From assembly GCA_964367355.1 (NCBI GenBank), contig CAYIWY010000007.1, positions 37,961 to 82,253 on the forward strand: a DNA stretch of 44,293 nucleotides. The letters are read 5' to 3'. Made by a program: the position numbers and the translations under genes. The stretch comes from an uncultured Gammaproteobacteria bacterium (GTDB lineage Bacteria; Patescibacteriota; Microgenomatia; Woykebacterales; RBG-16-39-9b). Below are positions 10,510 to 44,293 of the stretch, in pieces (the first letter of the stretch is position 1; every line of letters starts with the position of its first letter). The notes below the pieces were generated by a model. It saw only the letters and a list, made by a program, of their open reading frames with translations. It made no database searches and was not told where the DNA came from.

Positions 10510-10662
10510 CCAAGTCGCTCGTATACGTCGACAACTCCTTCGATAAATCGGAGTCAAACACGTCCGACTTAATAGCTCGCTTGGTTGAATTTCTTTTAGA
10601 CGCTTACTTGCAACGGTGGTTAGTGAAGCGAGAATCTGGTACACGTGCTTGTAACGGCGGTT

Positions 10663-17838: not shown

Positions 17839-18210
17839 ATGACAAAAATTTTAATAGTTGAGGACGATATCAGCCTATTAAATCTTTACAACGAAGTATT
17901 AAAAAAAGAAGGTTTTGAAATTGAGCTAGCTGACGACGGTCAGCAGGCTTTACTAAAAGCTGAGACGTTTATTCCAGATGTGGTCTTGCTTGATCTAATG
18001 CTGCCGTATATTGATGGTTTTGAAGTTCTGGAAAAACTAAAATCAAATCCAATCACAAAGGACGCTAGGGTAATAGTTCAGACCAATCTTGATTCAGAAA
18101 TCCAAAAAGAAAAAGCGCTTAAACTTGGAGCCTCTGAATTTTTAGTAAAATCAGACGATAATCCAGGAAGTTTACTCAAAGAAATCAAGAAACTCCTCGC
18201 AATATATTGA
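17839..18210 (+). CDS. Single-domain CheY-like response-regulator receiver
   Basis: KILIVEDD...VVLLDLMLPYIDGFEVLEKLK...VIVQTNL...K. 123 aa with no output domain. Confidence 0.9.
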   Translation: MTKILIVEDDISLLNLYNEVLKKEGFEIELADDGQQALLKAETFIPDVVLLDLMLPYIDGFEVLEKLKSNPITKDARVIVQTNLDSEIQKEKALKLGASEFLVKSDDNPGSLLKEIKKLLAIY

Positions 18211-26542: not shown

Positions 26543-26938
26543 ATGGCTAAACTTTTAATCGTTGAAGACGACCAACTTATTTCCAGGTTGTATGAGAAAA
26601 TTTTTACCTTTGAAAAATACGAGGTTATTTTAGCGGATAACGGTCAGGATGGTTTAGATAAGGCCAGAACCGAGAGTCCGACAATGATACTGCTCGATAT
26701 TATGATGCCGAAGATGAACGGTTTGCAGGTACTGGAGAAGCTTAAGGCCGACCCGGACCTGAAAAAGATCCCGGTGGTGATGCTCACCAATCTTGCCGGG
26801 GATAAAGATGCCGAGACCGCGCTTTCCAAAGGTGCGGTCAAATACATCATCAAATCCAACCAAGACCCCAAGCAAGTTTCCGATATGGTCAAAGAAGTTC
26901 TCGCTGGTTACACCCGCGACGAAGTCCCCGGTGGTTGA
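26543..26938 (+). CDS. Single-domain CheY-like response-regulator receiver
   Basis: KLLIVEDD...MILLDIMMPKMNGLQVLEKLK...VVMLTNL...K. 131 aa with no output domain. Confidence 0.9.
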   Translation: MAKLLIVEDDQLISRLYEKIFTFEKYEVILADNGQDGLDKARTESPTMILLDIMMPKMNGLQVLEKLKADPDLKKIPVVMLTNLAGDKDAETALSKGAVKYIIKSNQDPKQVSDMVKEVLAGYTRDEVPGG

Positions 26939-27968: not shown

Positions 27969-30900
27969 CTATTGTTGGTTGAGGACGAACCAAGTAAACT
28001 TGATCGCTTGCGCTGCCGACGCAGTCGCTTGGTCTGGTAGATCACCACTGTTGCGCTCCAGAGCCACTACAAAGCCTTCTCCGGTTTTTTTCTCTTTGAC
28101 GTAGAGCGACAGACCTCCAGTTTTGGTTGAGGCTGTTATGTTAACTAAAGATTCTTCAGTTATCTTGTCACTTTCGACGAATACCTCAGTTTCATTCTGT
28201 GCAAAACTCGCTTCACCAGCCGTCTTGGCCTCTTTCTTGACCACGGCTTCGCCAAAGACCAACTTTGTAAATTCTCCCAAAGCTGCGGTTACAGATTTAA
28301 AGAAAGCTTCGCCAGTGTCAGACACCCAGGCTACTACTTGACCGGCTGAATTTTCCCAGGCAAATTTCAGGCCAGCAGAGATAGTCGCCACCAAGTTATT
28401 GTCCGAATCTAGCGAAATCAAAGCAGATGAAGTTGCAGCGGTGGGACTTGCTGAGGCAATAGCAACGGAAGGATCAAGCTCAATTAGTTTTTGTGGGTCA
28501 GCGTAGTGAGTATTCACAAAGACCACAACCATTCCCTGACCAGCGCCATCAAAGGATGTCAACGCTCTACCCAGGACGTAGCCGGGTTTGCTCGCCTTCA
28601 TACCTACACCAGCAACAGAAGAACTGGTGATTAGATCCCCAGGCCTTATCGGACCGTTTTCCGTAGTTACTTTCACTGGTACCCTACCGACTAGGGCAAC
28701 CGGTATAGGTCGGCCGTAACCAGCGCCAAAACCATCATCCAAAATTTTCCCTGGTTTGGTAGATACAGCACCCAGTACTTGGTTGTCGTAAGGTCGTCCA
28801 CTCTTAGCTGTTCCAGAAGGAATGGCAGGGTCTATGCTGACTATATCACCGGCAACAATCGTACCATCTCTAGTGTAGTAATTCTCAGCTAGGTCAGCTC
28901 CTACTTGCAGGAGTGCAACGGTGATGGTACCAATGGTACCATCGTCAGAGCCGCTACCGGAAGTACAGATGGTGTAGTTGACCTGTGAGGTGGTCGAAGG
29001 GTAGTCAATAAAAGTGGCACTGGCTGCTGTTTGTTGCCCGCTTGTGGTTCTGAACGTTCCCCAGAAATCAGTGCCGACAATGGTACTGGTACAAGCAGCT
29101 GCTGAGCCAATGTTGCGGCGGACGTGAAATTCCGGTTCTTCATCGTTTGCTTCGTCAGAATTGAGCTGTATTGTGACTGCAATCAATACACCCTGACTAG
29201 TGGCAGTAGGGGTCATATTTGGTTGAGTACCATCCCAGACATCATTTGCCGAAGTGTAAGCCACAGTTTCACCGGTTGAGTCGGTAAAGAAAGCTGAGTC
29301 TGGTAAACCACTTCCACAACTAACTACCCCTGATCCATTTGTAGTTAAACTAGCGCAGCTGGTCAGCCCACCAAATGTAATAGTCCCGCCAGTGGAGTTG
29401 CCAATCGTAATAGTCTGGGCTCTTGCGGCTGTACCAATGAGAATTGAACCGTTACCAGAGGTCGAGGTACCGACGTCCAGCGAGATGTTGCCAGCCGTTC
29501 CCGCCGAAGCATTACCTGTTACCAAAGTAATTCCACCAGTCGCAGTGGTACCGGTCCCAGTATTTAGAGTCACCAAACCAGAGGCTCCAGCACCGTTGTT
29601 GGCCGAGCCGATGGTAGTCGCTGCTCTCGAAGTTAAGTTGGGACCAAAATCGAGCAGGGAAAAATTGTCTGCATCAATGTCACTTGTCCAAGGGGTTTGG
29701 GAGCCACCCCCACAAGCACCGTCAGTTAAGTTACAAAGAATTTTAGGTCCAGTAGCCTCATAAATTTTGAATTTGCTAGCATTTGTGTCGTACCAAATGT
29801 CGCCAGCTGCTGCTCCGGTCACACCGGCGACACTCGTTTTCAAGAAATCCCCAGTAGCAATTGCCACTCGACCATCGGCTGAGTCCAGAGTCAGCCCGGC
29901 TGCGCCGGAGGATATTGTCAAAGCACCACCGGCAGTCATTGTTGTCGTAGTTCCGAGGGAAAGGGTATTGTTGGCACTGCGGAAAAGTTGAACTGGGCTA
30001 GTTACCCCAAGTGATATACCCGATGTTGCTGTTCCGCCGTCATCCCAGGTTTGAATTCTTGATACGATTGTACCGCCAGCCGGATCCCCGACAAAGAACC
30101 TGCCGACTCCGGAGTCGCCGTCAATACCTAAAGCCGGCTGACCGTTGGCCACGAAACTCATCCGATTAGTAAGGCCGCCGACAGTAGCTCGGTAGAGTCC
30201 TAGGTTAGTTCGGTTAGTGAAACCAAATGCGGGCGAGTTAACAGCCCCGTCAGGAATAAATATTTGTCCTGTTGATATTAAATAAGGACCGGTATTAGCG
30301 ATACCGCGGTAAAGAGTAACCGCGTTGGCATCATTGCCCCATTGAATTCCGTTGGCCGGTTGGACGTTGTTGTAGGTGGCTCCATTACAGTCAAAACAAA
30401 TTCCGTAGTGGGTACCAGTAGCATTATATTGATCAGCGATGTTGATAACAACCGAAGTTTGGTCAGCGTCAGCAATTGCGTAAGAACCAATGTTAATAGC
30501 GTTGTTGCGGCAGGTCGCGGTTGCCGGGCAAGCCCCAGCAATCGTGGTTAAATCTAGTGAGTTGGTGGTGTAGGCATTAGCTGCGGCCGTTCCGGCAATT
30601 GTCGGCGAGATTTGTAAACCAGTGGTGGTTGTGCCGGTAGCCGTGAGTGCAGAGGTAAAACTAAGCGCAGCCAATTTTCCGGTGGTCAGGGCGGTGTCAC
30701 TTAGAGCAAAAGCGTTACCGGAAGCTGTAGCCGAGCTAGCAATAATTACCCCGGTAGTGTCTGGGGTTAAGGTAATATTACCGGCACTTCCAGTCCCAAT
30801 GGTTAAACCTGCGGCTGCAGTTAAGTTTGTTCCCAGACCAGTGATATTATTCGAATTGAACGCTAGTCCAGTTGAGGAGAAGTTGTATTCATCCGCTCCG

Positions 30901-32960
30901 GCAATCTGCAGGTTTATTGTTTTCCCACTCACAGCGTTGATATTTAAATCTCCGGTATTGTCTCGGAAGATTGAGTTCACTGTTCCAGCTGGTGGGCTGG
31001 CATCGTCGCTTGTAAAGGTCAGCGAACCATTGGTAGTGGTATCGACTTCTCCGGAAAAACTACCCCCCGGACAGGCTCCCCAGACAGGGATACCGCTAGC
31101 ACCTGCCCCAGAAAGAAGACACTGGCTGCCAGTCTCAGTCTCAACCACTCGGGTGACCACCCCACCAGTAGTAGTGTAAAGAACAGCATTCGCATCGGTA
31201 ATCATGGTGGAGAAAGTGATTGTGCCCGAAGAAGTTAGTCCAGTGGCGCCGGTGATTGCTCCAGCGCCGGTAATATCAATAGTTGGTGTGTTTAAGAAAT
31301 TGGTGTAACCGCCACCGCCACTATTCGAGAAATTGAGACCATCAGCGATTGCAACACTGTCATCGGCATTGTCAATGGCGATTCCCACGTCCAAACCATT
31401 GGTATTGGCACTGGCGGCTTGTTGGATAAACAGCCCTTGGGTTGTCCCGGCGGAGGCAGACGGTGTGCCAATGATTGAAATAACATCAACTGTTCCAGCC
31501 AGGTCTGAAGTCATAGCGACATTTTCTGTACCCAGTAAAGTAAAGTTTGTATCGGTTGTAAAAGTAGGTACGCCGTTAACAGTAATCGTATCCCCGGTAG
31601 TATTACCGATTGCAATTGTGCTGGAGTTTATATTTGTAGTTGAACCATCTGCGCCAGTTAATGTTGTCCCGGAGTCAAATGTCAGGGTTCCCGAGATAAA
31701 GTTGTCAGTCGTATCGCTTCTTAAGAAAGATAATGAGTCGATACCGTCCAAGGAGTCGGAGTTTAGGGCGTAACTAGATGAAGCAATTCTTTGACGTGGG
31801 GTGGCCTCAGCATCGGCACCAATCTTTACGCCTAGGTAGAGTGTGGAGTTGTCAGAGAAAAGACTTGCAGGGATAGCGGTATCGGCTTGTCCAGTGTCTC
31901 CAAGTTGAACTGAAAAGATCCCGTTTTGATCTGGTGTCACTGACCAAGTTTTGGATTCCCAAAGACAAGTGTTGGCACAAGGAGATCCCGTGTCCCCACT
32001 GGTTGAGGTGTAAATCCGATAGACTATGTTGGTTGCGGCAGTCACTGGGTTTCCCGAGGGATCGGTCAATCTTCCCTGGAAAGACAATATTCGAGGTGGA
32101 GTAGCTGCCAGAACAAAACCTTTCTGGATCTCAGTTTTTAGATTGGTAATATCAAGTGGTTTCGGTGCAAACAAGCCTTCCCAGACAAGCAGACCAACCA
32201 CCAAAACTGCTCCAGCACTAGCTGCCCAATTAACGTATTCGCTCATCGGGTGACCACGATAAGCATGCCACCAGCGTGGTTTTTTTACTTTAAACCGTTG
32301 CCAGAAACGCCCACCGTTGACAAGGCCCGGCCTTGTCAAGTTAACAGGATTTGTTTCGTAGACAATGTCTTCCTTATGGAAGTTGAAGAAGTCTTTTAAT
32401 GAGTAGAGGTAACGGTTAATCGATGCTGGTGAAACCTGTTTGGCTTTAAGAAAAGAAGTATATCGGTTTATATCAATCCGACTCACATGGTCAATAACTT
32501 TTTGGTTAATACCGCTGCCCGCAGGTTTTAGCCAGGCAAAAAAGGAGTTGAGATCAGAACGATATTGCTTGGTCGTACTTTCAGGTGCGCCCTGTTCCTG
32601 GATGTGTTCAACGTAGGTTTGAATTGGAGATACTTTGATTACTTCTGATACATTTACTGTGGTTATGGGTAAGACTTGCTCAACTTTATTTAAGTCGTAG
32701 CCTTTTAAAGCCAACCAGTTGGTAAAAGCCTTTAAACTGTAGCCAAAGCGACGAATCGTGCTTTCGGAAAAGTCGGCTTTTAAAATTGCGAGAGCAGCGC
32801 TAATGTGCGAATTATCAAGTTGCGTTTCCGCTGGGAGTTTTTCTAAAACACGGCGAAGATCGGAAACGTAGTTCTTTACTGTGGAACGAGAAGAGTTAGT
32901 TGAGATAAGGTGATTTATGAACTCCGGTAGGAGATTTTGTAGATTTTGAGCTGTTAACAT
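27969..32960 (-). CDS. Giant (1663 aa) membrane-anchored tail-fibre-like surface protein with two N-terminal integrase SAM-like (core-binding) domains and a C-terminal IMC/Peptidase_G2-like domain
   Basis: Complete ORF in the track. The N-terminal ~200 aa are two copies of the Phage_int_SAM pattern (..STVKNYVSDLRRVLEKL...TIRRFGYSLKAFTNWL and ..TTKQYRSDLNSFFAWL...SINRYLYSLKDFFNF), with no recombinase catalytic domain. TM helix VNWAASAGAVLVVGLLVWEGLF. Fibre motif DGIDSLSFLRSDTTDNFISGTLTF. C-terminal segment VALVGRVPVKVTTENGPIRPGDLITSSSVAGVGMKASKPGYVLGRAL. Confidence 0.85.
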   Translation of the reverse strand: MLTAQNLQNLLPEFINHLISTNSSRSTVKNYVSDLRRVLEKLPAETQLDNSHISAALAILKADFSESTIRRFGYSLKAFTNWLALKGYDLNKVEQVLPITTVNVSEVIKVSPIQTYVEHIQEQGAPESTTKQYRSDLNSFFAWLKPAGSGINQKVIDHVSRIDINRYTSFLKAKQVSPASINRYLYSLKDFFNFHKEDIVYETNPVNLTRPGLVNGGRFWQRFKVKKPRWWHAYRGHPMSEYVNWAASAGAVLVVGLLVWEGLFAPKPLDITNLKTEIQKGFVLAATPPRILSFQGRLTDPSGNPVTAATNIVYRIYTSTSGDTGSPCANTCLWESKTWSVTPDQNGIFSVQLGDTGQADTAIPASLFSDNSTLYLGVKIGADAEATPRQRIASSSYALNSDSLDGIDSLSFLRSDTTDNFISGTLTFDSGTTLTGADGSTTNINSSTIAIGNTTGDTITVNGVPTFTTDTNFTLLGTENVAMTSDLAGTVDVISIIGTPSASAGTTQGLFIQQAASANTNGLDVGIAIDNADDSVAIADGLNFSNSGGGGYTNFLNTPTIDITGAGAITGATGLTSSGTITFSTMITDANAVLYTTTGGVVTRVVETETGSQCLLSGAGASGIPVWGACPGGSFSGEVDTTTNGSLTFTSDDASPPAGTVNSIFRDNTGDLNINAVSGKTINLQIAGADEYNFSSTGLAFNSNNITGLGTNLTAAAGLTIGTGSAGNITLTPDTTGVIIASSATASGNAFALSDTALTTGKLAALSFTSALTATGTTTTGLQISPTIAGTAAANAYTTNSLDLTTIAGACPATATCRNNAINIGSYAIADADQTSVVINIADQYNATGTHYGICFDCNGATYNNVQPANGIQWGNDANAVTLYRGIANTGPYLISTGQIFIPDGAVNSPAFGFTNRTNLGLYRATVGGLTNRMSFVANGQPALGIDGDSGVGRFFVGDPAGGTIVSRIQTWDDGGTATSGISLGVTSPVQLFRSANNTLSLGTTTTMTAGGALTISSGAAGLTLDSADGRVAIATGDFLKTSVAGVTGAAAGDIWYDTNASKFKIYEATGPKILCNLTDGACGGGSQTPWTSDIDADNFSLLDFGPNLTSRAATTIGSANNGAGASGLVTLNTGTGTTATGGITLVTGNASAGTAGNISLDVGTSTSGNGSILIGTAARAQTITIGNSTGGTITFGGLTSCASLTTNGSGVVSCGSGLPDSAFFTDSTGETVAYTSANDVWDGTQPNMTPTATSQGVLIAVTIQLNSDEANDEEPEFHVRRNIGSAAACTSTIVGTDFWGTFRTTSGQQTAASATFIDYPSTTSQVNYTICTSGSGSDDGTIGTITVALLQVGADLAENYYTRDGTIVAGDIVSIDPAIPSGTAKSGRPYDNQVLGAVSTKPGKILDDGFGAGYGRPIPVALVGRVPVKVTTENGPIRPGDLITSSSVAGVGMKASKPGYVLGRALTSFDGAGQGMVVVFVNTHYADPQKLIELDPSVAIASASPTAATSSALISLDSDNNLVATISAGLKFAWENSAGQVVAWVSDTGEAFFKSVTAALGEFTKLVFGEAVVKKEAKTAGEASFAQNETEVFVESDKITEESLVNITASTKTGGLSLYVKEKKTGEGFVVALERNSGDLPDQATASAAQAIKFTWFVLNQQ
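32318..32339. repeat. Copy C of the palindrome family (tgacaaggcccggccttgtcaa) inside the coding sequence of 27969..32960
   Basis: Identical 22-mer to copy F. Translated on the minus strand as NLTRPGLVN. Confidence 0.7.
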
Positions 32961-32984: not shown

Positions 32985-33016
32985 GTATAACTTCTTGATA
33001 AATCAATCAGTTATAC
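32985..33016. promoter_or_regulatory. 32-bp near-perfect palindrome, GTATAACT-tc-TTGAT-aa-ATCAA-tc-AGTTATAC, upstream of the 27969..32960 gene
   Basis: 13 of 15 arm positions pair. Lies 25-56 nt upstream of ATG 32960. AGTTATAC recurs at 33170-33177 and 33204-33211. Confidence 0.45.
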
Positions 33017-33221
33017 TTAAATTCTAGACTAAAAAGAGGTAGGTTGTCAAGTAAGATTGAGTAATAAAATTATCATGTGGAAACCTGAGCGGTTGGGGTT
33101 TGAAAAGTCTAGAAAAAGTTAATTGTGGAAAGAAAAAAGTACCAGCAAAAAAAGATTGATAACTCAAAGAGTTATACGATTCGAAGAAGACTATAATTCA
33201 GCCAGTTATACCAAGAGAATA

Positions 33222-33273
33222 ATATACACCTGAAATGTACACCCGGAAATGTACACCCGGCGGGTGTACATTT
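33222..33273. repeat. REP cluster upstream of RAYT: three direct half-sites plus an inverted copy
   Basis: atatacacc (33222-33230), aaatgtacaccc (33233-33244) and aaatgtacaccc (33247-33258), then gggtgtacattt (33262-33273). The last two form a 12-bp stem with a 3-nt loop. Confidence 0.8.
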
Positions 33274-33299: not shown

Positions 33300-33926
33300 A
33301 TGGCAACAAAGAAACGTTATTTTGTTAATGGAAATTATTATCACGTCTTTAATCGGGGAGTCGAGAAGAGAAAAGTATTTCTAAAGGATAACGATTATAA
33401 AAGATTTTCTGAAACGATGGAGCATTGTTTAAAAAATGCCGGTCAGATAACGCGAAAATCTTTAAGGAAAAACACTCAACTTGCACTAGCTCCCGTTGAT
33501 GTAGTCGCTTATTGCTTAATGTCGAACCATTTTCATCTTTTAGTCAAGCAGAACTCTGAGAATGGTATTTCAACCTTCTTCAGTCGTCTGTCTAATAGCT
33601 ATACTAAGTATTTCAATACGAAATACGATCGGGTCGGGCCGTTGTTTCAAGGACCATTCAAGACGGTAAATATTGAAACTGATAGCCAACTCTTGCATCT
33701 CTCACGTTACATTCACCTCAACCCGGTTGTTTCAGGTATTACAGACGATCCTAGGGCGTTCCAGTGGTCTTCGTACAAGGATTATATTAGCGACAATGAG
33801 ACTTTTATTAAGCCTGAGATTGTTCTTGGAAATTTTATCAGTCGAGAGGACTACCAGCAGTTTGTCTTAGATCAAATAGATTACGCTCGAACATTGGAGG
33901 AACTAAAACATCTCTCCCTTGACTAA
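33300..33926 (+). CDS. REP-associated tyrosine transposase (RAYT; IS200-like HUH/Y1 transposase)
   Basis: YYHVFNRG, HUH motif SNHFHLLV and catalytic-Tyr motif SRYIHLNPV, in the order expected for Y1_Tnp/RAYT proteins. 208 aa. Flanked on both sides by related hairpins. Confidence 0.85.
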   Translation: MATKKRYFVNGNYYHVFNRGVEKRKVFLKDNDYKRFSETMEHCLKNAGQITRKSLRKNTQLALAPVDVVAYCLMSNHFHLLVKQNSENGISTFFSRLSNSYTKYFNTKYDRVGPLFQGPFKTVNIETDSQLLHLSRYIHLNPVVSGITDDPRAFQWSSYKDYISDNETFIKPEIVLGNFISREDYQQFVLDQIDYARTLEELKHLSLD

Positions 33927-34166: not shown

Positions 34167-35147
34167 TTATGCAACGGTTTTGTTGTTAGACTTAGAAATT
34201 ATCCAGTGGTTGTATCGCTTGATGGCGAAGTAGAGAGCCACAATGAGAAGTATCAGTAGGACAGCTAATACTAAGAGCGTCATCCAGGGGATAATCCAGA
34301 AAGAAGTTTGAGATGTTATTGTTTGTGCTGGACTACCATAATTTAATGTGATAGTGGCCGTGTAATAGCCAAGTTTAAAGCCTGGGTCTTTCCAAACAGT
34401 GTCAAAAATTCTATCAGAACCAGGTAATATGTTGGCAGAGAGTTGATTCACGTCAGCTGCAGCTACTTGTCCGCCAAATATATTCTTAATAGTAATAACA
34501 CCTTTTGGTTGAACGTGAACGTTGCCGTTGTTGGTTACAGTTGTACTGAACTTTACTGCAGAAGCATTGTCGTAACTTTGTTTGTCAGAAGTAAATGATT
34601 TTATGACTGCCGATTCTTTAGCCGTACCAGCAACTCTTACTAAAACTAGAGAACCAACTTTAGAAGCCAATCCAATCTGATTGGTACCAGTTGGGTCTGG
34701 AGGTTGAGTTGAGAAAAGTATTCCAGCATAGTGTCCACCAGGTTCGGCATCAGCGGGAACGGTGATGTTGAAGTTAAGTGCAGCTGATTCGTTTGGACTT
34801 AGGGTAATTCCCACACTGGAAACACTAACCCATTTGGCTAGGGAATAAGTTCCTGAATCTTCACCTTTGTTGAGGAAAATCGGAGTACCGGATTTGTTGT
34901 CAGATTTAAAATCAAGGACTTCTGGATAGTATGTTTGCTCTGAGCCACCAACATTTTTGATCTTGATAATATCTTGTTGGACTTTCCCTGCGGCAATTGT
35001 GTACTCGTAAAGCGGCGAGCTGACCTCAATACCAACACCGCTGTTTCCTGAGGATTGTTGTGCAAAAATTGCAGGAGCAAATAAGCTTGATGCAATTACC
35101 GCACCAGCGGTTATTTTAGCGATTTTGGACAGATTTTTCATTTTCAA
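34167..35147 (-). CDS. Cell-surface protein, DUF916/DUF3324 (CscA)-like, with signal peptide and C-terminal TM anchor
   Basis: Signal peptide ..SSLFAPAIFAQ. PGGHYAGILFS and VLPGS-type segments follow the pattern I recall for DUF916/DUF3324. C-terminal anchor WMTLLVLAVLLILLIVALYFAIKRY. The family call is from memory. Confidence 0.5.
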   Translation of the reverse strand: MKMKNLSKIAKITAGAVIASSLFAPAIFAQQSSGNSGVGIEVSSPLYEYTIAAGKVQQDIIKIKNVGGSEQTYYPEVLDFKSDNKSGTPIFLNKGEDSGTYSLAKWVSVSSVGITLSPNESAALNFNITVPADAEPGGHYAGILFSTQPPDPTGTNQIGLASKVGSLVLVRVAGTAKESAVIKSFTSDKQSYDNASAVKFSTTVTNNGNVHVQPKGVITIKNIFGGQVAAADVNQLSANILPGSDRIFDTVWKDPGFKLGYYTATITLNYGSPAQTITSQTSFWIIPWMTLLVLAVLLILLIVALYFAIKRYNHWIISKSNNKTVA

Positions 35148-35180
35148 AAATTATACACTAACCGTTTATTCTGTAAAGAC

Positions 35181-36290
35181 TTAAAAAGTACCAGTTGTAA
35201 TGTGAGTCACGATGTGACTGTAAGCACCAGCTGGTGTCGAACCAAGTATTGAGGCACTGTGACAAACAGCTGTAACTGCAGCAGAAACCGGACCAGTATC
35301 TCCATCACCACTGTCAGCATAAACCTTGGCTGTTCCAGTAATAGCAGTGGCGGCTTCTAATATGCCGCTGTCATCACAGCCAGTACTATCAACAATATCC
35401 TGGGTACCTATCGCATCGTTACTAGAAACGCCGTATTCCTCGGTGCCTTCGTCAACATCATTGTCACCGGTCTCATCGTCAATATTGTTGGTACAGACAG
35501 CAACTGAAGGTGAGCAGAGGTTCCCATTCTCTACAATAGTTGAAACATAGCCTGAAGAGGCATTGGTACTTACAGTATTATTATAAGTACAGAATCTTAT
35601 CGCGCCACTACTAAGAGAACCAGGGCCCAGTGCACAGGTGCTAGCGGATAAGAGTGAAGTAACGGAAGGATCCACTGTGGCACTAACAGTTACCTGATCT
35701 TCAGTCATAATCGCAACCGCAAGTGTTCCGGAGTCGGAGGCACCGGCAGTGATTGCTATTGATTTGCTTCCGTTAGAACCAGGGTTGCTGATTTGAGCAT
35801 TTCCACCAGCGGCGGCAAGGCCAATGGTGATAATCACTTTGTCACCAGCGGTAACAGTTCCTGTACAAGAAGTTATGGTCAATACATTTGTGGCAAAAGC
35901 AGCTCCCCAGGTTGTGCCCGTACAAGTAGCAGCTAAAACTTCGCTTGTTTCCAGACCGGTCGTTGCACCATGGGTAAAGTCAACATCACCAAATTCAGTA
36001 CTACCTGAGGAGAAACCACTGGTGTTAAAGTTAATCGTTATTGTTCCGGCGGCAGCGACTCCAGTCGGAGTAGTAAATTTGATAACATGGTCAGAAGCTT
36101 GGCTTAGTTTTAGCCTTGTCATTGTATCAGACATTGCGGTCAAACTAGCTGAGCTAACAATTGTTGAGAAAAGAGGATAAACTACCGTAACAATAAGAAG
36201 GGCAGTAAGTAAAATTCTGATAGCTTTATTTGATACAGCAGTGTTCATCTGAGTAAATAGATTATCCGTTAGGCTAGGCTTTACTGTCAA
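35181..36290 (-). CDS. Secreted T/S/G/A-rich surface (fibre or pilin-like) protein
   Basis: The likely real start is ATG at 36246 (MNTAVSNKAIRILLTALLIVTVVYPLF). Shares GTEEYGVSS and the C-terminal strand PAGAYSHIVTHITTGTF with the next gene. Confidence 0.5.
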   Translation of the reverse strand: MTVKPSLTDNLFTQMNTAVSNKAIRILLTALLIVTVVYPLFSTIVSSASLTAMSDTMTRLKLSQASDHVIKFTTPTGVAAAGTITINFNTSGFSSGSTEFGDVDFTHGATTGLETSEVLAATCTGTTWGAAFATNVLTITSCTGTVTAGDKVIITIGLAAAGGNAQISNPGSNGSKSIAITAGASDSGTLAVAIMTEDQVTVSATVDPSVTSLLSASTCALGPGSLSSGAIRFCTYNNTVSTNASSGYVSTIVENGNLCSPSVAVCTNNIDDETGDNDVDEGTEEYGVSSNDAIGTQDIVDSTGCDDSGILEAATAITGTAKVYADSGDGDTGPVSAAVTAVCHSASILGSTPAGAYSHIVTHITTGTF

Positions 36291-36297
36291 GTATTTC

Positions 36298-36996
36298 TTA
36301 AAAAGCTCCAGTAGTTATGTATGTTAAAACTTGTTGGTAGGTTCCAGCGGCAGTAGTTGCAGCATTGATTGAAGCTGCATAACAAAGTGTTGTCGTCTCG
36401 GCAGTGTAGGTAGGACCGTTTTTGTAGGCAACTGATTGTGGTGCAGCGGTGATTGGACTTGCAGTAAACGGAGTATTACTACAATCAGTGTCCTGAGAAA
36501 TATCTCGGCCAGCTTGAGAAGTTGCTAGACCGTATTCTTCTGCGCCTGCAGTCACAGCCCCATCACCAACCTGATCAATATCTGCTGTTCCATAACGAAG
36601 TTCACCATCTTCAACTACCCTTGTTGTATAACCCCCCACATTTGTTGTAACTGCAACAGAATGGCTTAGGGTTGAAACAGCAGAACCTGTAAGTGTACCG
36701 AGATTAATAACGTTTGAACTGAGTGTTACTGTGATTTTTGGAATGTCAGCGATAACACATTGAAAACCACTACAAGCTCGGTAATTGGTTGAGTTACCGA
36801 TACCAGGAGCAAAGCCGCCACCGGTGTCGGTCAAATTGTAACTAGCCGAGTTTTTTGCGCCCCCAAAATCACCAAACTCGCCTTCAAGTTTATAGTTGGT
36901 TGAGCTCGAGGGAAAAGCATAAGCTAGGCCAGCAAAAGAAAAGGATAGCAGAAAGAGGGTGAGATAGATTAAAATTGTACCAGAGAGTTTTGGCAT
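36298..36996 (-). CDS. Secreted surface (fibre or pilin-like) protein, paralog of 35181..36290
   Basis: Signal peptide LIYLTLFLLSFSFAGLAYA. GAEEYGLATS and the C-terminal AAGTYQQVLTYITTGAF parallel the upstream gene. Confidence 0.5.
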   Translation of the reverse strand: MPKLSGTILIYLTLFLLSFSFAGLAYAFPSSSTNYKLEGEFGDFGGAKNSASYNLTDTGGGFAPGIGNSTNYRACSGFQCVIADIPKITVTLSSNVINLGTLTGSAVSTLSHSVAVTTNVGGYTTRVVEDGELRYGTADIDQVGDGAVTAGAEEYGLATSQAGRDISQDTDCSNTPFTASPITAAPQSVAYKNGPTYTAETTTLCYAASINAATTAAGTYQQVLTYITTGAF

Positions 36997-37109: not shown

Positions 37110-39881
37110 ATGTCTACAGAACGATACAACCCGAAAAAAATACAGGCCAGGTGGCAGAAGAAATGGTCGACTGACAAGATTTTTGTGGTTGATTTGCAAA
37201 AATCTGCAAGGCCTTTTTTAGCCCAAGGGTCGCAAGATTTTGGCGTTAAGCCAAAATTTTACAATCTGATGATGTTCCCTTACCCCTCAGGGGATGGTCT
37301 TCACGTCGGTCACGTCTATGCTTTCGGCGGTGCCGATACCTACGGCCACTTCAAAAAAATGCAGGGTTTTGACGTTTTTGAACCCATGGGCTTTGATTCT
37401 TTCGGGATTCATTCGGAGAATTACGCACTCAAAATCAAGAAGCATCCACAACAGTTGATCGATGAGACCACAAAATACTTCCGAGAAGAGCAGCTCCAGA
37501 AGCTCGGAGCCTTGTTCGACTGGGATCACGAGGTGATCACTTCTGACATACATTATTATAGATGGACACAGTGGCTCTTTGTCCAATTGTTTAAAGCGGG
37601 GTTAGCGGTCAGAAAGAAGGCCGCGGTTGATTGGTGCCCAAGTTGTAAAACAGTTTTAGCCGACGAGCAAGTGATAGCCGGTAACTGTGAGCGCTGCGGT
37701 ACCGAAGTGATTCAGAAGGAGCTTGAACAATGGTTCTTTAAAATTACCGTTTACGCACAAAAACTACTGGATAATCTCGAGACTATCGATTGGTCTGAAA
37801 CCACCAAAACAATGCAGCGTAATTGGATTGGTAGAAGTGAAGGAGCTGAGATTGAATTTAGAGTTAAGAATTCAGAGTTACAACATGCGCTAGGAAGCGC
37901 GGCATTTGCTGACGCAAAAGTATCGGAATCATTTGCTGACGCAAAAGTAAAAGTTTATACAACCAGGCCAGACACAATTTTTGGTGCTACCTTTATGGTC
38001 ATTGCGCCCGAACACCCACAAATAGATCAATTAATAACAAAAGACAACACAACAAAAGTATCAGACTATATCAATCAGGCTAGGAACAAGAGTGAAGTTG
38101 AAAGAGCCGCGGAAAAGAGTGGAGTTTTTACTGGAAGTTACGCCATTAACCCGTTAACTAAAAACGAAGTCCCGATTTGGGTGGCCGACTACGTTCTGAT
38201 GGGGTATGGAACCGGGGCAGTCATGGCCGTTCCGGCCCACGATCAGAGAGACTTTGAGTTTGCCAAGAAGTACGATTTGGAGATTAAAGCTGTCATCTCG
38301 AGTGAGTCTGCGAGCGAGAGATCTCTCACTGGCGTTCGAGATGACAAAGAAGACAATTTGAAAGAGGCCTTCGTAGGTGAGGGAAAGTTAGTTAATTCAG
38401 GAGAGTTTAACGGACTAACTTCAGAAGAGGCTAAAGAGAAGATATCAGAATATATCGAAAGCAAAAATATTGGATCAAGAAAAGTTAACTTTCATTTGCG
38501 TGATTGGTTAATCTCCAGGCAGCGTTACTGGGGCCCACCAATCCCAATGATTCACTGTGAAAACTGCGCAAAACAAGGCAAGAGTTGGTTTACGACTGAA
38601 GAAGCAGAGAAAAGATTAAAGGATCAAAGCTCACAGATGAAAGAAAAAAACACTAGCCAAGATCTTAAATCTGAAATGCCTGGTTGGCCCGCCCGCCACG
38701 CGAGCGAGAGCGTTGCGGGTTGGTACCCAGTTGCGGAAGAAGATTTACCGGTGAAACTTCCGGAGGTTGAGGACTATCAACCAAAAGGTTCAGGCGTTAG
38801 TCCGTTGGCGGCGTTGGAAGATTTCGTCAACGTCAAATGCCCAGCCTGCGGTTCAAATGCAAAAAGGGAAACCGACGTCTCCGACACATTTTTAGATTCG
38901 AGTTGGTATTTTCTTAGGTATCCCTCTGTTGGAATTAAGAATTCAGAGCATGCGCTCGGAAGCGCGGCATTTGCTAACGCAAAAGTATCGGAATCATTTG
39001 CTAACGCAAAAGTTGAGCTTCCCTGGAACCAAGAAATAACCAAGAAATGGTTGCCGGTTGACAGCTACATTGGCGGCAATGAACACGCTGTTCTGCATTT
39101 GCTTTACAGCCGGTTTATCACCATGGCGCTGCACGACATGGGTTTGATCGATTTTGAAGAACCATTCAAAAAGTTTCGCGCTCACGGCTTGATAATTTAC
39201 AAGGGTGCCAAGATGAGTAAGTCGCGCGGAAACGTGGTCAACCCCAACGAATATATCGATGCCTACGGCAGCGACGCTCTGAAAATGTACCTGCTATTCA
39301 TTGGGCCGTTTGAGCTTGGGGGAGAGTTTAACGATCGGGCGATAACCGGTGTCTACCGCTTTTTGAATAGAGTTTGGACTTTGGTTCAAGAAGGTAAGTT
39401 TGTAACTAACACAGACCCAGTCTTAGCAAACGAGCTAAATAAACTCAATTCTAAGGTTGAATCAGATCTGGAAAACCTGAAATTTAATACAGCCATCGCC
39501 GCATTAATGGAGTTTTTAAACGAACTTTATAAAAACCGTTCAAGCCTATCGCGGGAAATCGTGGTTAATTACCTACTTTTACTAGCCCCACTTGCACCAT
39601 TCACAACTGAAGAACTTTGGGAAATTCTGGGCGAAACAAGCTCAATTCACCTGCAGAAATGGCCAGATCAACTTAATACCACGGTCAAAGAAGAGCAAGA
39701 TACGATTATTATCCAAGTCAACGGTCGTTTCCGCGATAAAATTGAGGTTGACAAAGATGTTTCTAAGGAAGAAGTTAGCCGCTTGGCTCTTGACCAACCC
39801 AAAGTGAAGACTTACACTCAAAATAAGCAGCCTAAAAATATTATCTACGTGGCTGGTAAGTTGATTAACATTGTAATTTAA
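37110..39881 (+). CDS. leuS: Leucyl-tRNA synthetase with lineage-specific insertions
   Basis: The track starts at GTG 37089. An ATG at 37110 gives MSTERYNPKKIQARWQKKW, the canonical LeuRS N-terminus. HIGH motif (HVGHVY), TTRPDTIFGATF of the CP1 editing domain, and KMSKS (GAKMSKSRGN). Confidence 0.95.
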   Translation: MSTERYNPKKIQARWQKKWSTDKIFVVDLQKSARPFLAQGSQDFGVKPKFYNLMMFPYPSGDGLHVGHVYAFGGADTYGHFKKMQGFDVFEPMGFDSFGIHSENYALKIKKHPQQLIDETTKYFREEQLQKLGALFDWDHEVITSDIHYYRWTQWLFVQLFKAGLAVRKKAAVDWCPSCKTVLADEQVIAGNCERCGTEVIQKELEQWFFKITVYAQKLLDNLETIDWSETTKTMQRNWIGRSEGAEIEFRVKNSELQHALGSAAFADAKVSESFADAKVKVYTTRPDTIFGATFMVIAPEHPQIDQLITKDNTTKVSDYINQARNKSEVERAAEKSGVFTGSYAINPLTKNEVPIWVADYVLMGYGTGAVMAVPAHDQRDFEFAKKYDLEIKAVISSESASERSLTGVRDDKEDNLKEAFVGEGKLVNSGEFNGLTSEEAKEKISEYIESKNIGSRKVNFHLRDWLISRQRYWGPPIPMIHCENCAKQGKSWFTTEEAEKRLKDQSSQMKEKNTSQDLKSEMPGWPARHASESVAGWYPVAEEDLPVKLPEVEDYQPKGSGVSPLAALEDFVNVKCPACGSNAKRETDVSDTFLDSSWYFLRYPSVGIKNSEHALGSAAFANAKVSESFANAKVELPWNQEITKKWLPVDSYIGGNEHAVLHLLYSRFITMALHDMGLIDFEEPFKKFRAHGLIIYKGAKMSKSRGNVVNPNEYIDAYGSDALKMYLLFIGPFELGGEFNDRAITGVYRFLNRVWTLVQEGKFVTNTDPVLANELNKLNSKVESDLENLKFNTAIAALMEFLNELYKNRSSLSREIVVNYLLLLAPLAPFTTEELWEILGETSSIHLQKWPDQLNTTVKEEQDTIIIQVNGRFRDKIEVDKDVSKEEVSRLALDQPKVKTYTQNKQPKNIIYVAGKLINIVI
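37864..37948 (+). repeat. In-frame repeat element, copy 1, inside leuS
   Basis: ttaagaattcagag(ttacaa)catgcgctaggaagcgcggcatttgctgacgcaaaagtatcggaatcatttgctgacgcaaaagt. Encodes KNSELQHALGSAAFADAKVSESFADAKV. Confidence 0.8.
38935..39013 (+). repeat. In-frame repeat element, copy 2, inside leuS
   Basis: 79 nt. Differs from copy 1 by three substitutions and one 6-nt indel (counted by eye). Encodes KNSEHALGSAAFANAKVSESFANAKV. Confidence 0.8.
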
Positions 39882-40411: not shown

Positions 40412-40672
40412 TTATTCTTTGGTAGAGCGGTGGAGGATAGAGGATGCAAGGGTTTGATATGGTATTCCTTCCTCGGCTGCTTTAACTTTCAACTTGTGTA
40501 AATCCCTTTCGGTCAAGCGAATATTAATGTTTCTGGTTTTATTTAATGTATTTCTGGCCGCTTCTTCAAGCAATGCTTTTTCCTTGGCAAAATCTTTAAC
40601 TCTAACTAATTTGCCTTCTTCAAAGGCCTTTACGATTTCTTCTTCTTCTTCATCTAAAGTATAGTACTTCAT
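40412..40672 (-). CDS. brnA: BrnA-like (RHH/CopG-type) antitoxin
   Basis: C-terminal INIRLTERDLHKLKVKAAEEGIPYQTLASSILH matches the BrnA pattern (ISLRLP...L..LK..A....VPYQSLIK..L). Lies 4 nt downstream of the toxin gene. Confidence 0.7.
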   Translation of the reverse strand: MKYYTLDEEEEEIVKAFEEGKLVRVKDFAKEKALLEEAARNTLNKTRNINIRLTERDLHKLKVKAAEEGIPYQTLASSILHRSTKE

Positions 40673-40675
40673 AAT

Positions 40676-40948
40676 TTATTTACTCCTTAAATATTTTTTA
40701 GTCGCCTTTCTGTTAGGAATAATAGTTTTTAAAAAAGTTTTTTTCTCCTCCCTAACATAAGGCACTAAGTAAGCATAATTATTAATTTCTACAACCATAA
40801 TTCTTTGATTAGGATAACGTCTTTGGTTGGGGTGAGGGAACGTATCCAGTAATCGACCTTCTTCTACAGCTAATTTTACTTCTTCAAAACCAATGTTTCT
40901 TTCTTTGTTTAACTTTTTATTCTTTTCCTCATCCCAATCAAAGTACAC
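40676..40948 (-). CDS. brnT: BrnT-like (DUF497) ribonuclease toxin
   Basis: N-terminal YFDWDEEKNKKLNKERNIGFEEV matches (F/I)xWDExKxxxNxxKHGxxFeE. C-terminal IIPNRKATKKY matches ISxRxAxxxE. Toxin-first gene order, as in brnTA. Confidence 0.75.
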   Translation of the reverse strand: MYFDWDEEKNKKLNKERNIGFEEVKLAVEEGRLLDTFPHPNQRRYPNQRIMVVEINNYAYLVPYVREEKKTFLKTIIPNRKATKKYLRSK

Positions 40949-41312: not shown

Positions 41313-42752
41313 CTAATTGACAATCCACCAATCGAAGGATAGGTCAAAGTTTAGAGCTTGATCGAGTTCAACTGTGAAATCTTGATCAGGATTTTTTGAA
41401 GCAATAAATAGCGATTGGCCTTTGGCCGAATTCAAGAGCGAGGTGAATATTTTCGAATTAGCCTTAACCAAGCTTGATTCTATAATTACCGAAGTTTCTC
41501 CGGCTTTAATTACCATCGTGCCGGAAGTTTTATCGCCGGCTATTTTGAGTTCGCCGGTAGTTAGATCCTCTGTCTCGATCGACTTGGCAATCAGTTTATT
41601 GGAAATTGTCAGATCGCCAATTAAGTTAATGGAACCGGAGATTTCAAGCTGACCTTTACTATCAAGCTTGATCAGGTTGGACCCAAGAGTGATCGAGTTA
41701 TTGACAACCAAGTTGTCAGTCGTGATGTTGATCGCGACCAAGTCGGCGGTGGTAATATTTTCCATTCCGGTTAATGTGGTTGGCAGCCCAGCGTTTAGTG
41801 GTGGTGCCCAGTAACCACCTTGGACAAAAACCAGGATTTTCCCCTGACAAGGCCCGGCCTTGTCAATGTCGCAGGCAAAACTTTCAAGTGCCTTTCCAAC
41901 AATCGGTCCAGGTTGAGTGGCTTTCATTGCAACCCCAGGGGTTGAAGAAGACGTTAGATAATCACCAACTTCAATTGGGCCGTTCTCACTTGAAACTTTG
42001 GTTGGCACGCGTCCCGCGAGTGCAAGTTTCGCCAAGTATTGTGGTTTTCCAAGTTCGTCAGGATTATCAATAAATGTTGGATCGGTACTTTGAATTCCCA
42101 GTAAGGTTTTTTGATAAGGCGAACCAGATTTCTTGACCGTAAAATCAGTTGCAGCCGTATCAATTGCCAAAACATCACCAGCTTCTAAGGACTCACTGGC
42201 AACTGCTCGTTCGGCGATATCAAAGGTTCCGGTCCGGTTCCAGTAGCTACAAGTTCCACCAGTTCCTTTCCAGAAAATTCGAGTATTAGTGGAGTCAAAA
42301 CCAAAGTCACCATTGGCTAGGGAAGCACAAGTTGGTGCGGCTTGGGCGGTATTAAGATTGAAACCAACGGCGGTGGTTGAGCCACCCGAGGCAGTAATTG
42401 CTCCACTAAAATAATTGAGTCCACCAGCAGAGTAGATCGAATAGCTAGTCGTAGATCCAAATTGGTTGGCGATATACAAACCATAACTGGTGGTTGTACT
42501 GGCATCCCCAAAATTAACAATATTGATTCCATATGCAGTTGTTGGCACTGAACTTAACCAAGTTTTTGATAAGCTGAGTCCGTAAGCGGTGGTAATTGCA
42601 CCACCAATTCCACCTGCGGATCTTACAGCAATAAATGTACCGTAAAGAGAGGTAATTGCAGTATTGGAAGATTGGTATGCGGTAATTTGAGCGCCTAGTA
42701 CTGAGGAAGCGGTTGAACCAACCCCACCCTGCCAGTTGGCGCTGGTGACCAA
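41313..42752 (-). CDS. C-terminal fragment of a frameshifted fibre gene (IMC/G2-like domain plus a conserved tail module)
   Basis: The track ORF begins at an arbitrary TTG. The same frame stays open upstream to the stop at 42927-42929 and reads fibre-like sequence there (GNSAFGGNASVNANRIIYADESFTGSG..). It contains LALAGRVPTKVSSENGPIEVGDYLTSSSTPGVAMKATQPGPIVGKAL. Confidence 0.8.
   Translation of the reverse strand: MVTSANWQGGVGSTASSVLGAQITAYQSSNTAITSLYGTFIAVRSAGGIGGAITTAYGLSLSKTWLSSVPTTAYGINIVNFGDASTTTSYGLYIANQFGSTTSYSIYSAGGLNYFSGAITASGGSTTAVGFNLNTAQAAPTCASLANGDFGFDSTNTRIFWKGTGGTCSYWNRTGTFDIAERAVASESLEAGDVLAIDTAATDFTVKKSGSPYQKTLLGIQSTDPTFIDNPDELGKPQYLAKLALAGRVPTKVSSENGPIEVGDYLTSSSTPGVAMKATQPGPIVGKALESFACDIDKAGPCQGKILVFVQGGYWAPPLNAGLPTTLTGMENITTADLVAINITTDNLVVNNSITLGSNLIKLDSKGQLEISGSINLIGDLTISNKLIAKSIETEDLTTGELKIAGDKTSGTMVIKAGETSVIIESSLVKANSKIFTSLLNSAKGQSLFIASKNPDQDFTVELDQALNFDLSFDWWIVN
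41845..41866. repeat. Copy F of the palindrome family (tgacaaggcccggccttgtcaa) inside the coding sequence of 41313..42752
   Basis: Identical 22-mer to copy C but read in a different frame, as DIDKAGPCQ. Confidence 0.7.
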
Positions 42753-42850: not shown

Positions 42851-44251
42851 TTATTCGGTTAGCGTTGACACTGGCGTTGCCACCAAAAGCGGAGTTTCCC
42901 CAGCAACAGCCAGAGTAGTAGCGATACTAAGGCCACCACCGGCGGTGAAGTTAGTCCCGGCGGCACCAATATTGGTTGCGAGATTATTATTAAAATTTAT
43001 GTTTCCGGCCATAGTTCCACCGCCTAAAGGAAGGTAATTTGAAGCAGTAATTGTATCGGGAATGGCAGCGTCACCAACACAATTAGTACAAGTGAAGGTT
43101 CCCAAGACACTCAAAGTCGTTCCGGCATCAAGTGTCAAAGTTCCGGAGGTAAAGTTATCCGAAGTATCAGATCGTAAGAATTGAGTTGAATCGATTGAAT
43201 CAAGCAAGTCAGCATCAACCCCACTGCCAGCTAAATTAAATGTGATCGTGTTGTTGGCATCATTAGCTGTGATCGTGACTCCGGCACCAGCAACAAAGGA
43301 AATATCCCCACCATTATTTTTAACTCCAGCAATACTGGAAACAGCTTCGTTGATTAGTGAAAGAGCAAAAGTATTACCGGTTCGGGCGACATTTATTCCG
43401 GTTCCGGTCAGGTTTAATCCCGAAAGGCCAGTGTTAACCGAGGTATCGGCAATATCTTTTATCGTCGCGGCTGTCCAAAATTGATCAGAACTACAGGTTA
43501 AAAGCTGGGCAATGTCGAGGGTTAGCACACACGCCCCAGTTGCTCCGGAGAGGTTAGGAAAGGTAATTTCTTTACTCAAAATCTTTTTTACATCGATCGT
43601 TTCAACCTCTAGGCTATCGTTAGTAATCAGAGAATTATCGGCAGAAATAGGAGCCGAGGAGTCAGAGATAATGGTTTTTTGGATTACGACTTCTTGTTTT
43701 TCGTTAATTGTTATAACTTTGTTCACATTGGTTAAGCCTAGTGGATCAGTTGAATTGGAGTTAGCAGGTTTGGCTTCTTTGATAAATTCCGCTAGAACTT
43801 TACCTACGGGGCGACCAACACTTTTTTTAAAGCTCGAATCGGGGAGGTTGATAAACACACTGGTTGATAAAAAGATGACAAAACCGACCGATCCGAGCAT
43901 TAACAGAGATTTACTAGCACCTTTGTAAGCGCTTACCAGGGTCGAGAGATCCATTGGTTTTTTTAGAAATTTCTTTCTCTCTTCGTCCAAAATCTTTTTT
44001 ATTTCCTCGACACTTTTTCCTGCCTTCAACATATTGTCAATAAAAACTAGACGATCAAGAGCAGTGGCGGGAAACTGACCGTTGAGAAGGCGGGGGACTA
44101 GGCTCGCATTAACATAATTTTCAATTGTTTGGTGGTGGTTATCCCCAAGCTCAACACCGTGGTCTAAAGCACGGCCGATGAGTTGGTCAATATTAATTAA
44201 TTGATCGCGTTGATATGGACTTTGTTCTAAATACATGGGATGAGTTCGCAA
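42851..44251 (-). CDS. N-terminal fragment of the same fibre gene (MerR-like HTH, TM helix, tail-fibre repeats)
   Basis: TTG at 44251, or ATG at 44236 (MYLEQSPYQ..). MerR-like segment TIENYVNASLVPRLL...LDRLVFIDNMLKAGKSVEEIKKIL. TM helix SLLMLGSVGFVIFLSTSVFINL. Fibre motifs DSIDSTQFLRSDTSDNFTSGTLTL and IPDTITASNYLPLGGGTMAG. Confidence 0.8.
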   Translation of the reverse strand: MRTHPMYLEQSPYQRDQLINIDQLIGRALDHGVELGDNHHQTIENYVNASLVPRLLNGQFPATALDRLVFIDNMLKAGKSVEEIKKILDEERKKFLKKPMDLSTLVSAYKGASKSLLMLGSVGFVIFLSTSVFINLPDSSFKKSVGRPVGKVLAEFIKEAKPANSNSTDPLGLTNVNKVITINEKQEVVIQKTIISDSSAPISADNSLITNDSLEVETIDVKKILSKEITFPNLSGATGACVLTLDIAQLLTCSSDQFWTAATIKDIADTSVNTGLSGLNLTGTGINVARTGNTFALSLINEAVSSIAGVKNNGGDISFVAGAGVTITANDANNTITFNLAGSGVDADLLDSIDSTQFLRSDTSDNFTSGTLTLDAGTTLSVLGTFTCTNCVGDAAIPDTITASNYLPLGGGTMAGNINFNNNLATNIGAAGTNFTAGGGLSIATTLAVAGETPLLVATPVSTLTE

Positions 44252-44293
44252 ACGAAATGCACCACTTAAGGTAAAATTACTAACCTTAAGGAG

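Follow-up and report, generated by a model that had tools for sequence, protein, structure and literature searches.

Large surface proteins of a Microgenomates-type bacterium with predicted cytoplasmic DNA-binding-type domains and class-specific repeats beside their genes

The DNA analysed here (contig CAYIWY010000007.1, positions 37,961 to 82,253; 44,293 nucleotides (nt), called the window throughout) is chromosomal DNA of a Microgenomates-type (Patescibacteria) bacterium. Three genes of the window, the open reading frames (ORFs) A, B and C, encode proteins that begin with a domain of a DNA-binding type, continue through a single transmembrane helix and end in a surface ectodomain. Each class of N-terminal domain has its own conserved repeats just past the predicted promoter of the gene. 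Our preferred reading, a tentative one to which we give nearly an even chance, is that these proteins are membrane-tethered, self-regulating DNA binders, bitopic with the N-terminus inside, and that the repeats of their own class are their candidate sites.

Bacteria of the candidate phyla radiation (CPR) live attached to other cells, and their genomes encode many giant surface proteins; to our knowledge, next to nothing has been learned about how these proteins are regulated or anchored. The window holds ATP synthase genes, a leucyl-tRNA synthetase gene, two-component systems and clustered genes for surface proteins. Ten contigs of other public assemblies encode a protein identical to ORF B; the identical gene is present in samples ERR3858112, SRR32696699 and SRR32696706, and a near-complete genome (GCA_030704665.1, contig JAUYID010000009.1, 938 kb) contains an orthologue. 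Relatives with names belong to Roizmanbacteria, Shapirobacteria, Levyibacteriota, Woykebacteria, Beckwithbacteria and unclassified Patescibacteria.

Domain architecture of the surface proteins

The features of ORF B are as follows.

27969-32960, minus strand: ORF B, a 1663-amino acid (aa) bitopic surface protein with two SAM-like domains, one helix and a large ectodomain
32703-32924, minus strand: SAM-like (core-binding) domain 1, aa 13-86 (PF02899 with residues 1-95 alone)
32376-32624, minus strand: SAM-like (core-binding) domain 2, aa 113-195 (best Pfam stretch for PF02899; XerD/XerC N-termini; PDB 3nrw)
32247-32282, minus strand: conserved, basic cytoplasmic juxtamembrane motif KPRWWHAYRGHP (wholly or nearly invariant in alignment A3)
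32166-32222, minus strand: single transmembrane helix, aa 247-265 (Kyte-Doolittle scan)
31761-32120, minus strand: first ectodomain (KGFVLAATPPRILSFQGRLT...), limits approximate (kept in relatives)

The original prediction, made from the letters of the window, held that ORF B opens with two tandem integrase SAM-like domains and has no recombinase catalytic domain, and both statements were borne out. PF02899 (Phage_int_SAM_1) matched the first 250 residues with 91 bits (E=6e-26), and each half taken separately exceeded the Pfam gathering cut-off of 22.3 bits (40.1 bits for residues 1-95 and 47.5 bits for residues 108-210). The two halves are 32% identical to each other. The XerD/XerC models aligned to ORF B only through their first 90-100 positions, with scores far under cut-off; domain 2 matched PDB 3nrw, and the NCBIfam model of FliZ gave a weak match (E=0.006). 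A scan of the full 1663 residues returned no match to the catalytic domain PF00589. ORF B thus has a core-binding-like domain without a catalytic domain, which is the arrangement of FliZ, and its assignment as a tyrosine recombinase of the Xer/phage integrase type was ruled out because the catalytic domain with the active-site tyrosine is absent. A single-sequence AlphaFold model of the N-terminus was poor (predicted local distance difference test score, pLDDT, 49).

Residues 247-265 are the sole 19-residue window of ORF B with a Kyte-Doolittle hydropathy of at least 1.6, and the helix is found at the same place in the homologues. ORF A and ORF C likewise have one hydrophobic segment each, in agreement with the single helix predicted for all three proteins. 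The cytoplasmic part of ORF B is basic (isoelectric point, pI, 9.7), and some 1400 residues with a high content of Gly, Thr and Ser come after the helix.

For ORF A and ORF C, the following features were assigned.

2-10162, minus strand: ORF A, a surface protein of at least 3387 aa that runs off the window, with a MerR-like N-terminal domain and one helix
9893-10141, minus strand: predicted MerR-like winged-helix domain of ORF A, aa 8-90 (profile, AlphaFold, Foldseek)
9578-9634, minus strand: transmembrane helix of ORF A, aa 177-195 (hydropathy 2.69)
42851-44251, minus strand: ORF C, the N-terminal half of a third surface-protein gene; probable start MYLEQ at 44236
43994-44203, minus strand: divergent MerR-like domain of ORF C (38% identity to the ORF A domain)
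43850-43906, minus strand: transmembrane helix of ORF C, aa 111-129 from the MYLEQ start (hydropathy 2.27)
41313-42752, minus strand: C-terminal half of the ORF C gene, with the C-terminal domain common to ORF B (frame open upstream into ORF C)
42891-42904, minus strand: frameshift site GCTGGGGAAACTCC joining the ORF C frame to that of ORF 41313-42752

ORF A and ORF C have homologous N-termini (38% identity over 80 aa, E=8e-10) with a common domain of about 90 residues, of which 10 further members were recovered as fragments. The count of three independent cases made in the original prediction must accordingly be reduced: the architecture is present in all three proteins, but the ORF A and ORF C modules are paralogous. 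The MerR-like assignment of these two N-termini fared better in fold and profile searches, which rank MerR first, than in Pfam, where the scores stay below threshold (a weak MerR match was obtained for 10 of the 12 module members). Searched against the PDB, a 12-sequence profile placed MerR, GlnR and TnrA at the top (E=0.009 to about 1). An alignment-based AlphaFold model (pLDDT 86, predicted template-modelling score 0.73) has the element order beta-alpha-alpha-beta-beta-alpha-alpha, and the top five Foldseek hits are all DNA-binding domains of the MerR family (GlnR, CarH, SoxR in two entries, and CvkR; probability 0.85-0.97, template-modelling score 0.47-0.59). Because of the profile ranking, the modelled element order and the Foldseek hits, we accept a predicted MerR-type fold for the domain and not membership in the Pfam family. 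The domain has a 5-residue insertion in its turn. In ORF A, where it is basic (pI 9.4), its helix 4 (aa 82-90) is followed by a low-complexity linker and then the transmembrane helix.

ORF C comprises 466 aa and, together with ORF 41313-42752, forms one gene of about 960 aa, broken by a frameshift in a tract with a short run of G and a run of A. The sequence at this site is identical in an independent assembly (L001), and the frameshift is therefore no one-off assembly error; the gene may be a pseudogene or contain a phase-variable tract. An orthologue fragment of ORF C (P0004) begins with MYLEE.

The architecture is widespread. A word-index homologue search with aa 1-281 of ORF B returned no relatives; an exhaustive search with the same query did. 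At E<1e-60, nine cluster representatives of 596-3849 aa match the query along its whole length. Of the 150 top-ranking representatives, 68 continue from the SAM-like region into a hydrophobic helix, and a catalytic domain occurs in only 13; at least 53 of the 68 are 550 aa or longer, reaching 5432 aa. The SAM-like region, helix and ectodomain occur together in about 55 long representatives and at 10 of 18 genome loci. Intact ORFs at the genome loci measure 2422, 2510 and 3232 aa, and a fourth exceeds 3743 aa. The MerR-like module was found at 163 loci of a metagenome scan. In nearly all of the 80 loci retained for analysis, a linker and one helix come after the module, and the part beyond them ranges from about 100 to more than 3000 residues. 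It is also present on small proteins of 218-233 aa, which carry just the C-terminal domain that ends ORF B and ORF 41313-42752. Given these small proteins and the wide range of lengths, the MerR-like module is a general membrane module that is not specific to giant fibres. The survey of relatives thus places the same architecture in many Microgenomates/Patescibacteria lineages.

The N-terminal domain can also be exchanged. A 984-aa protein (P0020) has the juxtamembrane motif, helix, ectodomain start and C-terminal domain of the ORF B type, and in place of the SAM-like region a canonical MerR/HTH_17 domain that exceeds the Pfam cut-offs. A 262-aa fragment (P0164), also above the MerR/HTH_17 cut-offs, has the same N-terminal arrangement as far as it reaches. 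The motif KPRWWHAYRGHP follows the MerR/HTH_17 domain in both, and distant SAM-like proteins have it in the form RPxWYxxYH. Since different DNA-binding-type folds sit on the same fibre type, the swap argues for a common role of the cytoplasmic domain.

Three lines of evidence support an N-terminus in the cytoplasm and an ectodomain outside, as deduced from the protein sequences. No signal peptide was found on these proteins. The first ectodomain (…LSFQGRLT…) stands directly behind ordinary signal peptides in proteins of other phyla, of the Chloroflexota type. In ORF A, basic residues predominate N-terminally of the helix (5 Lys/Arg within 15 residues, against 2 on the C side), as they do in ORF B when 30 residues are counted. 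The original prediction, which would have fallen with an N-terminus outside the cell, is on this point consistent with the indicators.

Its description of the extracellular parts as tail-fibre-like is weak. Neither Pfam nor PHROGs gave a match beyond the N-terminus of the window proteins, and the only PHROGs match, to an integrase, lies at the N-terminus. Relatives of either N-terminal module were not found on IMG/VR viral contigs, and the flanks of the loci are housekeeping genes. A phage tail fibre or prophage origin was rejected on these three grounds. Peptidase_S74, Gly_rich_2, Laminin_G_3, PA14, LVIVD or FG-GAP domains occur in some homologues only, and large surface protein is the safer name.

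Taken as a whole, the architecture is well supported, if indirectly, as a functional link rather than a chance fusion. The proposal that these are membrane-tethered DNA-binding modules gains such indirect support from the recurrence, the domain swap, the topology and the DNA elements described below; the two functions that the original prediction offered, signalling and nucleoid anchoring, are not distinguished by this evidence.

Class-specific repeats beside the genes

The promoters and repeats of the three window genes are listed here.

33021-33064, minus strand: predicted ORF B promoter, consisting of a TTACTCAAT element, TTGACA, 18 nt and TAGAAT (promoter scan, 11/12 positions)
32985-33016, minus strand: proximal dyad GTATAACTGATTGATTTATCAAGAAGTTATAC, 32 bp, beginning 5 nt past the -10 box
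33156-33211, minus strand: two further GTATAACT boxes, at 33156-33177 and 33191-33211
10361-10390, minus strand: predicted ORF A promoter, consisting of TTGACA, 18 nt and CATAAT with a TG extension (promoter scan, 11/12 positions)
10312-10351, minus strand: family palindrome, present twice (ATTTCCCGTAATGGTAAAT and ATTTCCCGCGATGGAGGGG), from 10 nt past the -10 box
44265-44290, minus strand: palindrome CTTAAGGT, 10 nt, ACCTTAAG, 5' of ORF C

Background scans for the elements covered about 1.1 Mb in all (108 loci for the direct-repeat pattern and 783 kb for the palindrome), and the class-specific elements are rare elsewhere in this DNA. At ORF B, all four matches of the GTATAACTNNNTGANNTAT motif in the window fall inside 32985-33211; 0.27 were expected, and none of 100 shuffles gave four or more. 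The palindromes of this segment, singled out in the original prediction as binding targets, are conserved in orthologues. The predicted promoter is kept in loci L004 and L006-L009; together with at least the proximal dyad it stands at the same position in five orthologous loci, and four of the five have the upstream boxes as well. Despite this conservation of the dyad, the proteins are just 46-57% identical.

A second clade of SAM-like proteins, whose N-terminal region shares 22-25% identity with ORF B, has leaders with two or three RTATAATC direct repeats at 9-bp spacing. Among the 108 loci, this pattern was found at six genes of the second clade and at one stray site. The density of GTATAA in the 300 nt 5' of 16 SAM-type genes is 7.3/kb, compared to a background of 0.44/kb and 0.71/kb 5' of MerR-like genes. 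The GTATAA(T/C) boxes look like -10 hexamers.

The element of the MerR-like family, TTCCCGTnACGGGAA, is a palindrome of the form TTCC(C)GTnAC(G)GGAA. At 56 of the 75 eligible loci it adjoins the gene, and it is seldom seen in the rest of the DNA scanned for it. Over the 80 retained loci, both the predicted recognition helix (RLRYYxKIGLLPH) and its partner palindrome are nearly invariant. In the small family members the palindrome comes after the stop codon, just 5' of the -35 box belonging to the following gene, whose product is an O-antigen ligase-related membrane protein. The two genes with canonical MerR/HTH_17 domains both have AAATCTAnnn repeats, which were seen nowhere else among the loci; AAATCTATAC repeats are the candidate sites of the P0020 domain. 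Element classes thus track domain classes across the scanned DNA.

Many medium-sized MerR-like genes (L033, L036, L038, L042-L077) also have a long leader hairpin (GAAGGCCCGC, about 80 nt, GCGGGCCTTC) between the palindrome and the start codon, for which Rfam gave no match.

Possible mechanism and competing explanations

We propose that a cytoplasmic DNA-binding-type domain, connected by one transmembrane helix with a surface ectodomain of about 100 to more than 5000 residues, would bind the class-specific repeats just past the promoter of its own gene or, in the small family members, those in front of the neighbouring gene. Binding could repress or tune expression of the protein's own gene. 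Being fixed in the membrane, the protein might thereby hold its gene at the membrane during synthesis and insertion of the long polypeptide, and the state of the ectodomain (clustering, contact or load) could conceivably modulate binding. DNA binding by the N-terminal domains is inferred from their family membership and the repeats: all domain types found so far (SAM-like, canonical MerR/HTH_17 and MerR-like) come from DNA-binding families.

Parts of this scheme have precedents. ToxR, TcpP, CadC and VtrA have a similar layout, in which the DNA-binding domain at the cytoplasmic N-terminus is separated by a single transmembrane helix from a C-terminal part outside. The target sites of ToxR-like regulators are at or near their own locus, and these proteins have been linked to membrane recruitment of genes, with transertion described for VtrA/VtrB (PMC6320335, PMC9977878). 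ToxR-like proteins combine an OmpR-type winged helix with a small periplasmic sensor, whereas the proteins described here have a SAM-like tandem or a MerR-type fold, their outside part reaches thousands of residues, and their DNA sites are candidates; Pfam found no OmpR-type domain (Trans_reg_C) in the window proteins, which have SAM-like or MerR-like domains instead. FliZ of Escherichia coli is a repressor with an integrase core-binding-like domain and no catalytic domain, and it binds -10-like boxes, one of them just downstream of the flhDC start site (PMC3367168). The SAM-like proteins would resemble it in having a core-binding domain without the catalytic part and -10-like boxes next to the predicted promoter as candidate sites. 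FliZ is small and soluble with a single such domain, whereas the proteins described here have one or two (two in ORF B), are membrane-tethered and carry a large ectodomain. XerC/XerD and phage integrases share the N-terminal core-binding domain (PF02899) with ORF B, in which, unlike in XerC/XerD, this domain is duplicated and followed by a transmembrane helix in place of a catalytic domain. GlnR, TnrA and HiNmlR, members of the MerR family without a long sensor, have the same order of structural elements as the ORF A domain and are its best fold and profile matches; the window domain differs from them in its sub-threshold Pfam score, the insertion in the turn, the lack of a dimerisation helix and the presence of a linker and transmembrane helix.

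Several observations weigh against self-regulating DNA binders. No palindrome was found at 19 of the 75 eligible MerR-like loci, and the elements are absent at the SAM-like loci L023 and L106. The MerR and MerR_1 scores of the ORF A/ORF C module (16-18 bits) lie under the Pfam cut-offs of 21.6-28.2, the Foldseek E-values are only 0.03-0.4, and the ORF A domain lacks the C-terminal coiled-coil dimerisation helix and effector region of MerR proteins. The ORF C domain is acidic (pI 5.5) and without the conserved basic RLRYY helix. MerR operators lie in a promoter spacer of 19-20 bp, whereas the predicted ORF A spacer is 18 nt and the palindrome stands 10 nt past the -10 box. A correspondence between the number of boxes and the number of SAM-like domains was rejected, since two domains face three boxes in L012, L018 and L021. 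The transcription start sites are predicted ones. The pairing of domain class and element class could also reflect common descent, with gene and leader co-inherited, rather than recognition. Finally, the elements could act as 5' hairpins in RNA, and the -10-like boxes could be sigma-dependent pause sites.

The strongest alternative is that the N-terminal domains are protein adaptors or plain anchors that do not bind DNA, and that the repeats are unrelated leader features, as of genes that are very long or strongly expressed. A small, stably folded domain inside the cell would then keep the long fibre in the membrane or dock it to a partner in the cytoplasm. The bitopic protein RodZ has an Xre-type helix-turn-helix at its cytoplasmic N-terminus, one helix and an outside domain, and its helix-turn-helix docks to MreB; by this analogy, a cytoplasmic helix-turn-helix on a bitopic protein can bind protein and not DNA, a further point against our reading. 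An adaptor would also accommodate the exchange of unrelated small helical domains on one fibre type, the ORF C copy, which has lost its basic helix and turned acidic yet keeps an intact frame up to the frameshift, and the failure of box count to follow domain count. Against it are the finding that each domain type found so far belongs to a DNA-binding family, the near-invariance of the RLRYYxKIGLLPH helix together with its palindrome, and the way that element class follows domain class. On balance we consider this explanation rather unlikely.

In a second alternative, which we judge clearly unlikely, the elements work in RNA or on the polymerase: as a 5' stem-loop that stabilises the mRNA or is bound by the nascent N-terminal domain, or as -10-like boxes that pause sigma-bound polymerase to load an antitermination factor for very long genes. 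On this view the N-terminal domain may bind nucleic acid, though not in the manner of a classical operator-binding repressor. They begin 5-10 nt past the predicted -10 boxes and are probably transcribed, the GTATAAT boxes resemble -10 hexamers, and the leaders of some MerR-like genes (L032, L034 and L035) extend to long hairpins followed by T runs. However, hairpins cannot arise from direct repeats spaced 9-10 bp apart, a pairing partner is missing for the distal GTATAACT boxes, and in the small members the palindrome lies 5' of a -35 box and accompanies proteins of 218-233 aa that would have no need of antitermination. Rfam recognised no known RNA family in the three leaders searched. Where the right half of the palindrome varies, a compensating change is mostly absent, which is weak evidence because the 51 instances were chosen by their left half. 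We lean towards DNA sites rather than RNA elements because of the direct repeats, the unpaired distal boxes, the placement of the palindrome in the small members, the uncompensated changes and the lack of an Rfam match.

The second function offered by the original prediction, non-specific or many-site tethering that anchors the nucleoid at the fibre bases without regulation, fits the basic cytoplasmic parts of ORF A and ORF B and the presence of several such proteins in a single 44-kb window. In the DNA examined, specific elements occur only beside the genes themselves, which points to a local, specific role and makes general anchoring very improbable. Extremely doubtful is a promoter-inversion (phase-variation) switch in which the GTATAACT dyads are recombination sites of a separate tyrosine recombinase and the core-binding domains of the fibre compete for them: palindromic sites at 33156-33177 and 32985-33016 do bracket the predicted promoter, core-binding domains bind inverted repeats at recombination sites (PMC3367168), and a tyrosine-type Y1 transposase gene adjoins the fibre gene here and at two other loci, but the promoter faces the gene in 6 of 6 orthologous loci, the flanks showed no gene for an Xer-type recombinase, Y1 transposases belong to another enzyme family, and the second clade has direct repeats.

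Neighbouring genes and significance

Several features of the surroundings were recorded in addition. An IS200/IS605-type Y1 transposase gene (33300-33926) is divergent from ORF B and lies near nested hairpin repeats (AAATGTACACCCG / CGGGTGTACATTT) at 33233-33273; such genes are also directly beside related fibre genes in L005 and at the P0050 locus. Receiver-only response regulators without an output domain, together with histidine kinases, adjoin the ORF B-type gene in conserved order (26543-26938 and 17839-18210 in the window, 12211-12582 in L004 and 9364-9759 in L006), and the fibre protein's cytoplasmic domain might be a target of these two-component proteins. In several genomes, a conserved cluster of three genes for small surface proteins, one with a weak WxLIP_PGBD match, separates the leucyl-tRNA synthetase gene from the gene of the ORF B type (34167-36996 in the window, 629-2684 in L004 and 172-3027 in L006).

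The leucyl-tRNA synthetase gene itself contains two in-frame copies of an element of about 90 nt (37858-37948 and 38929-39013), 1.07 kb apart and 95% identical over 65 nt, each of which adds HALGSAAFA(D/N)AKVSESFA(D/N)AKV to the protein. The segment ...GPI.PGDLITSS..GVGMKA... is common to ORF B, ORF 41313-42752 and a 275-aa ORF (10645-11472), and a similar terminal motif, F.W(W/F)(I/L/V), is found in ORF B, ORF 41313-42752 and the MerR-like membrane proteins of 218-233 aa (L090-L104). A BrnT/BrnA-type toxin-antitoxin pair is encoded at 40412-40948, as judged from Pfam matches to BrnT_toxin and, weakly, CopG_antitoxin on the identical genes of L001.

In the searchable literature, whose coverage is incomplete, we found no description of this architecture, and an earlier one may exist. 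Bitopic regulators, FliZ and MerR folds are known parts; what appears to be new is their combination with giant ectodomains and class-specific elements. A broader proposal, which we regard as possible rather than probable, is that the proteins represent a widespread class of one-component surface-to-DNA systems in CPR bacteria, in which membrane-tethered integrase core-binding or MerR-type domains that recognise the promoters of their own genes wire giant adhesin-like fibres directly to transcription. Clustering or load of the fibre, or its contact with a host, would then alter expression, and the giant gene would be kept at the membrane during synthesis. The pairs of element and domain are short and well defined, which makes them directly testable in vitro and in E. 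coli reporters although the organism is uncultured. If the domains bind the elements, the surface proteins would connect the cell surface with the genome in a simple way, in organisms that have few classical regulators. They would also be the second case, after FliZ, in which the recombinase core-binding domain serves as a transcription factor, here in membrane-bound form, and a natural example of a protein that holds its own gene at the membrane.

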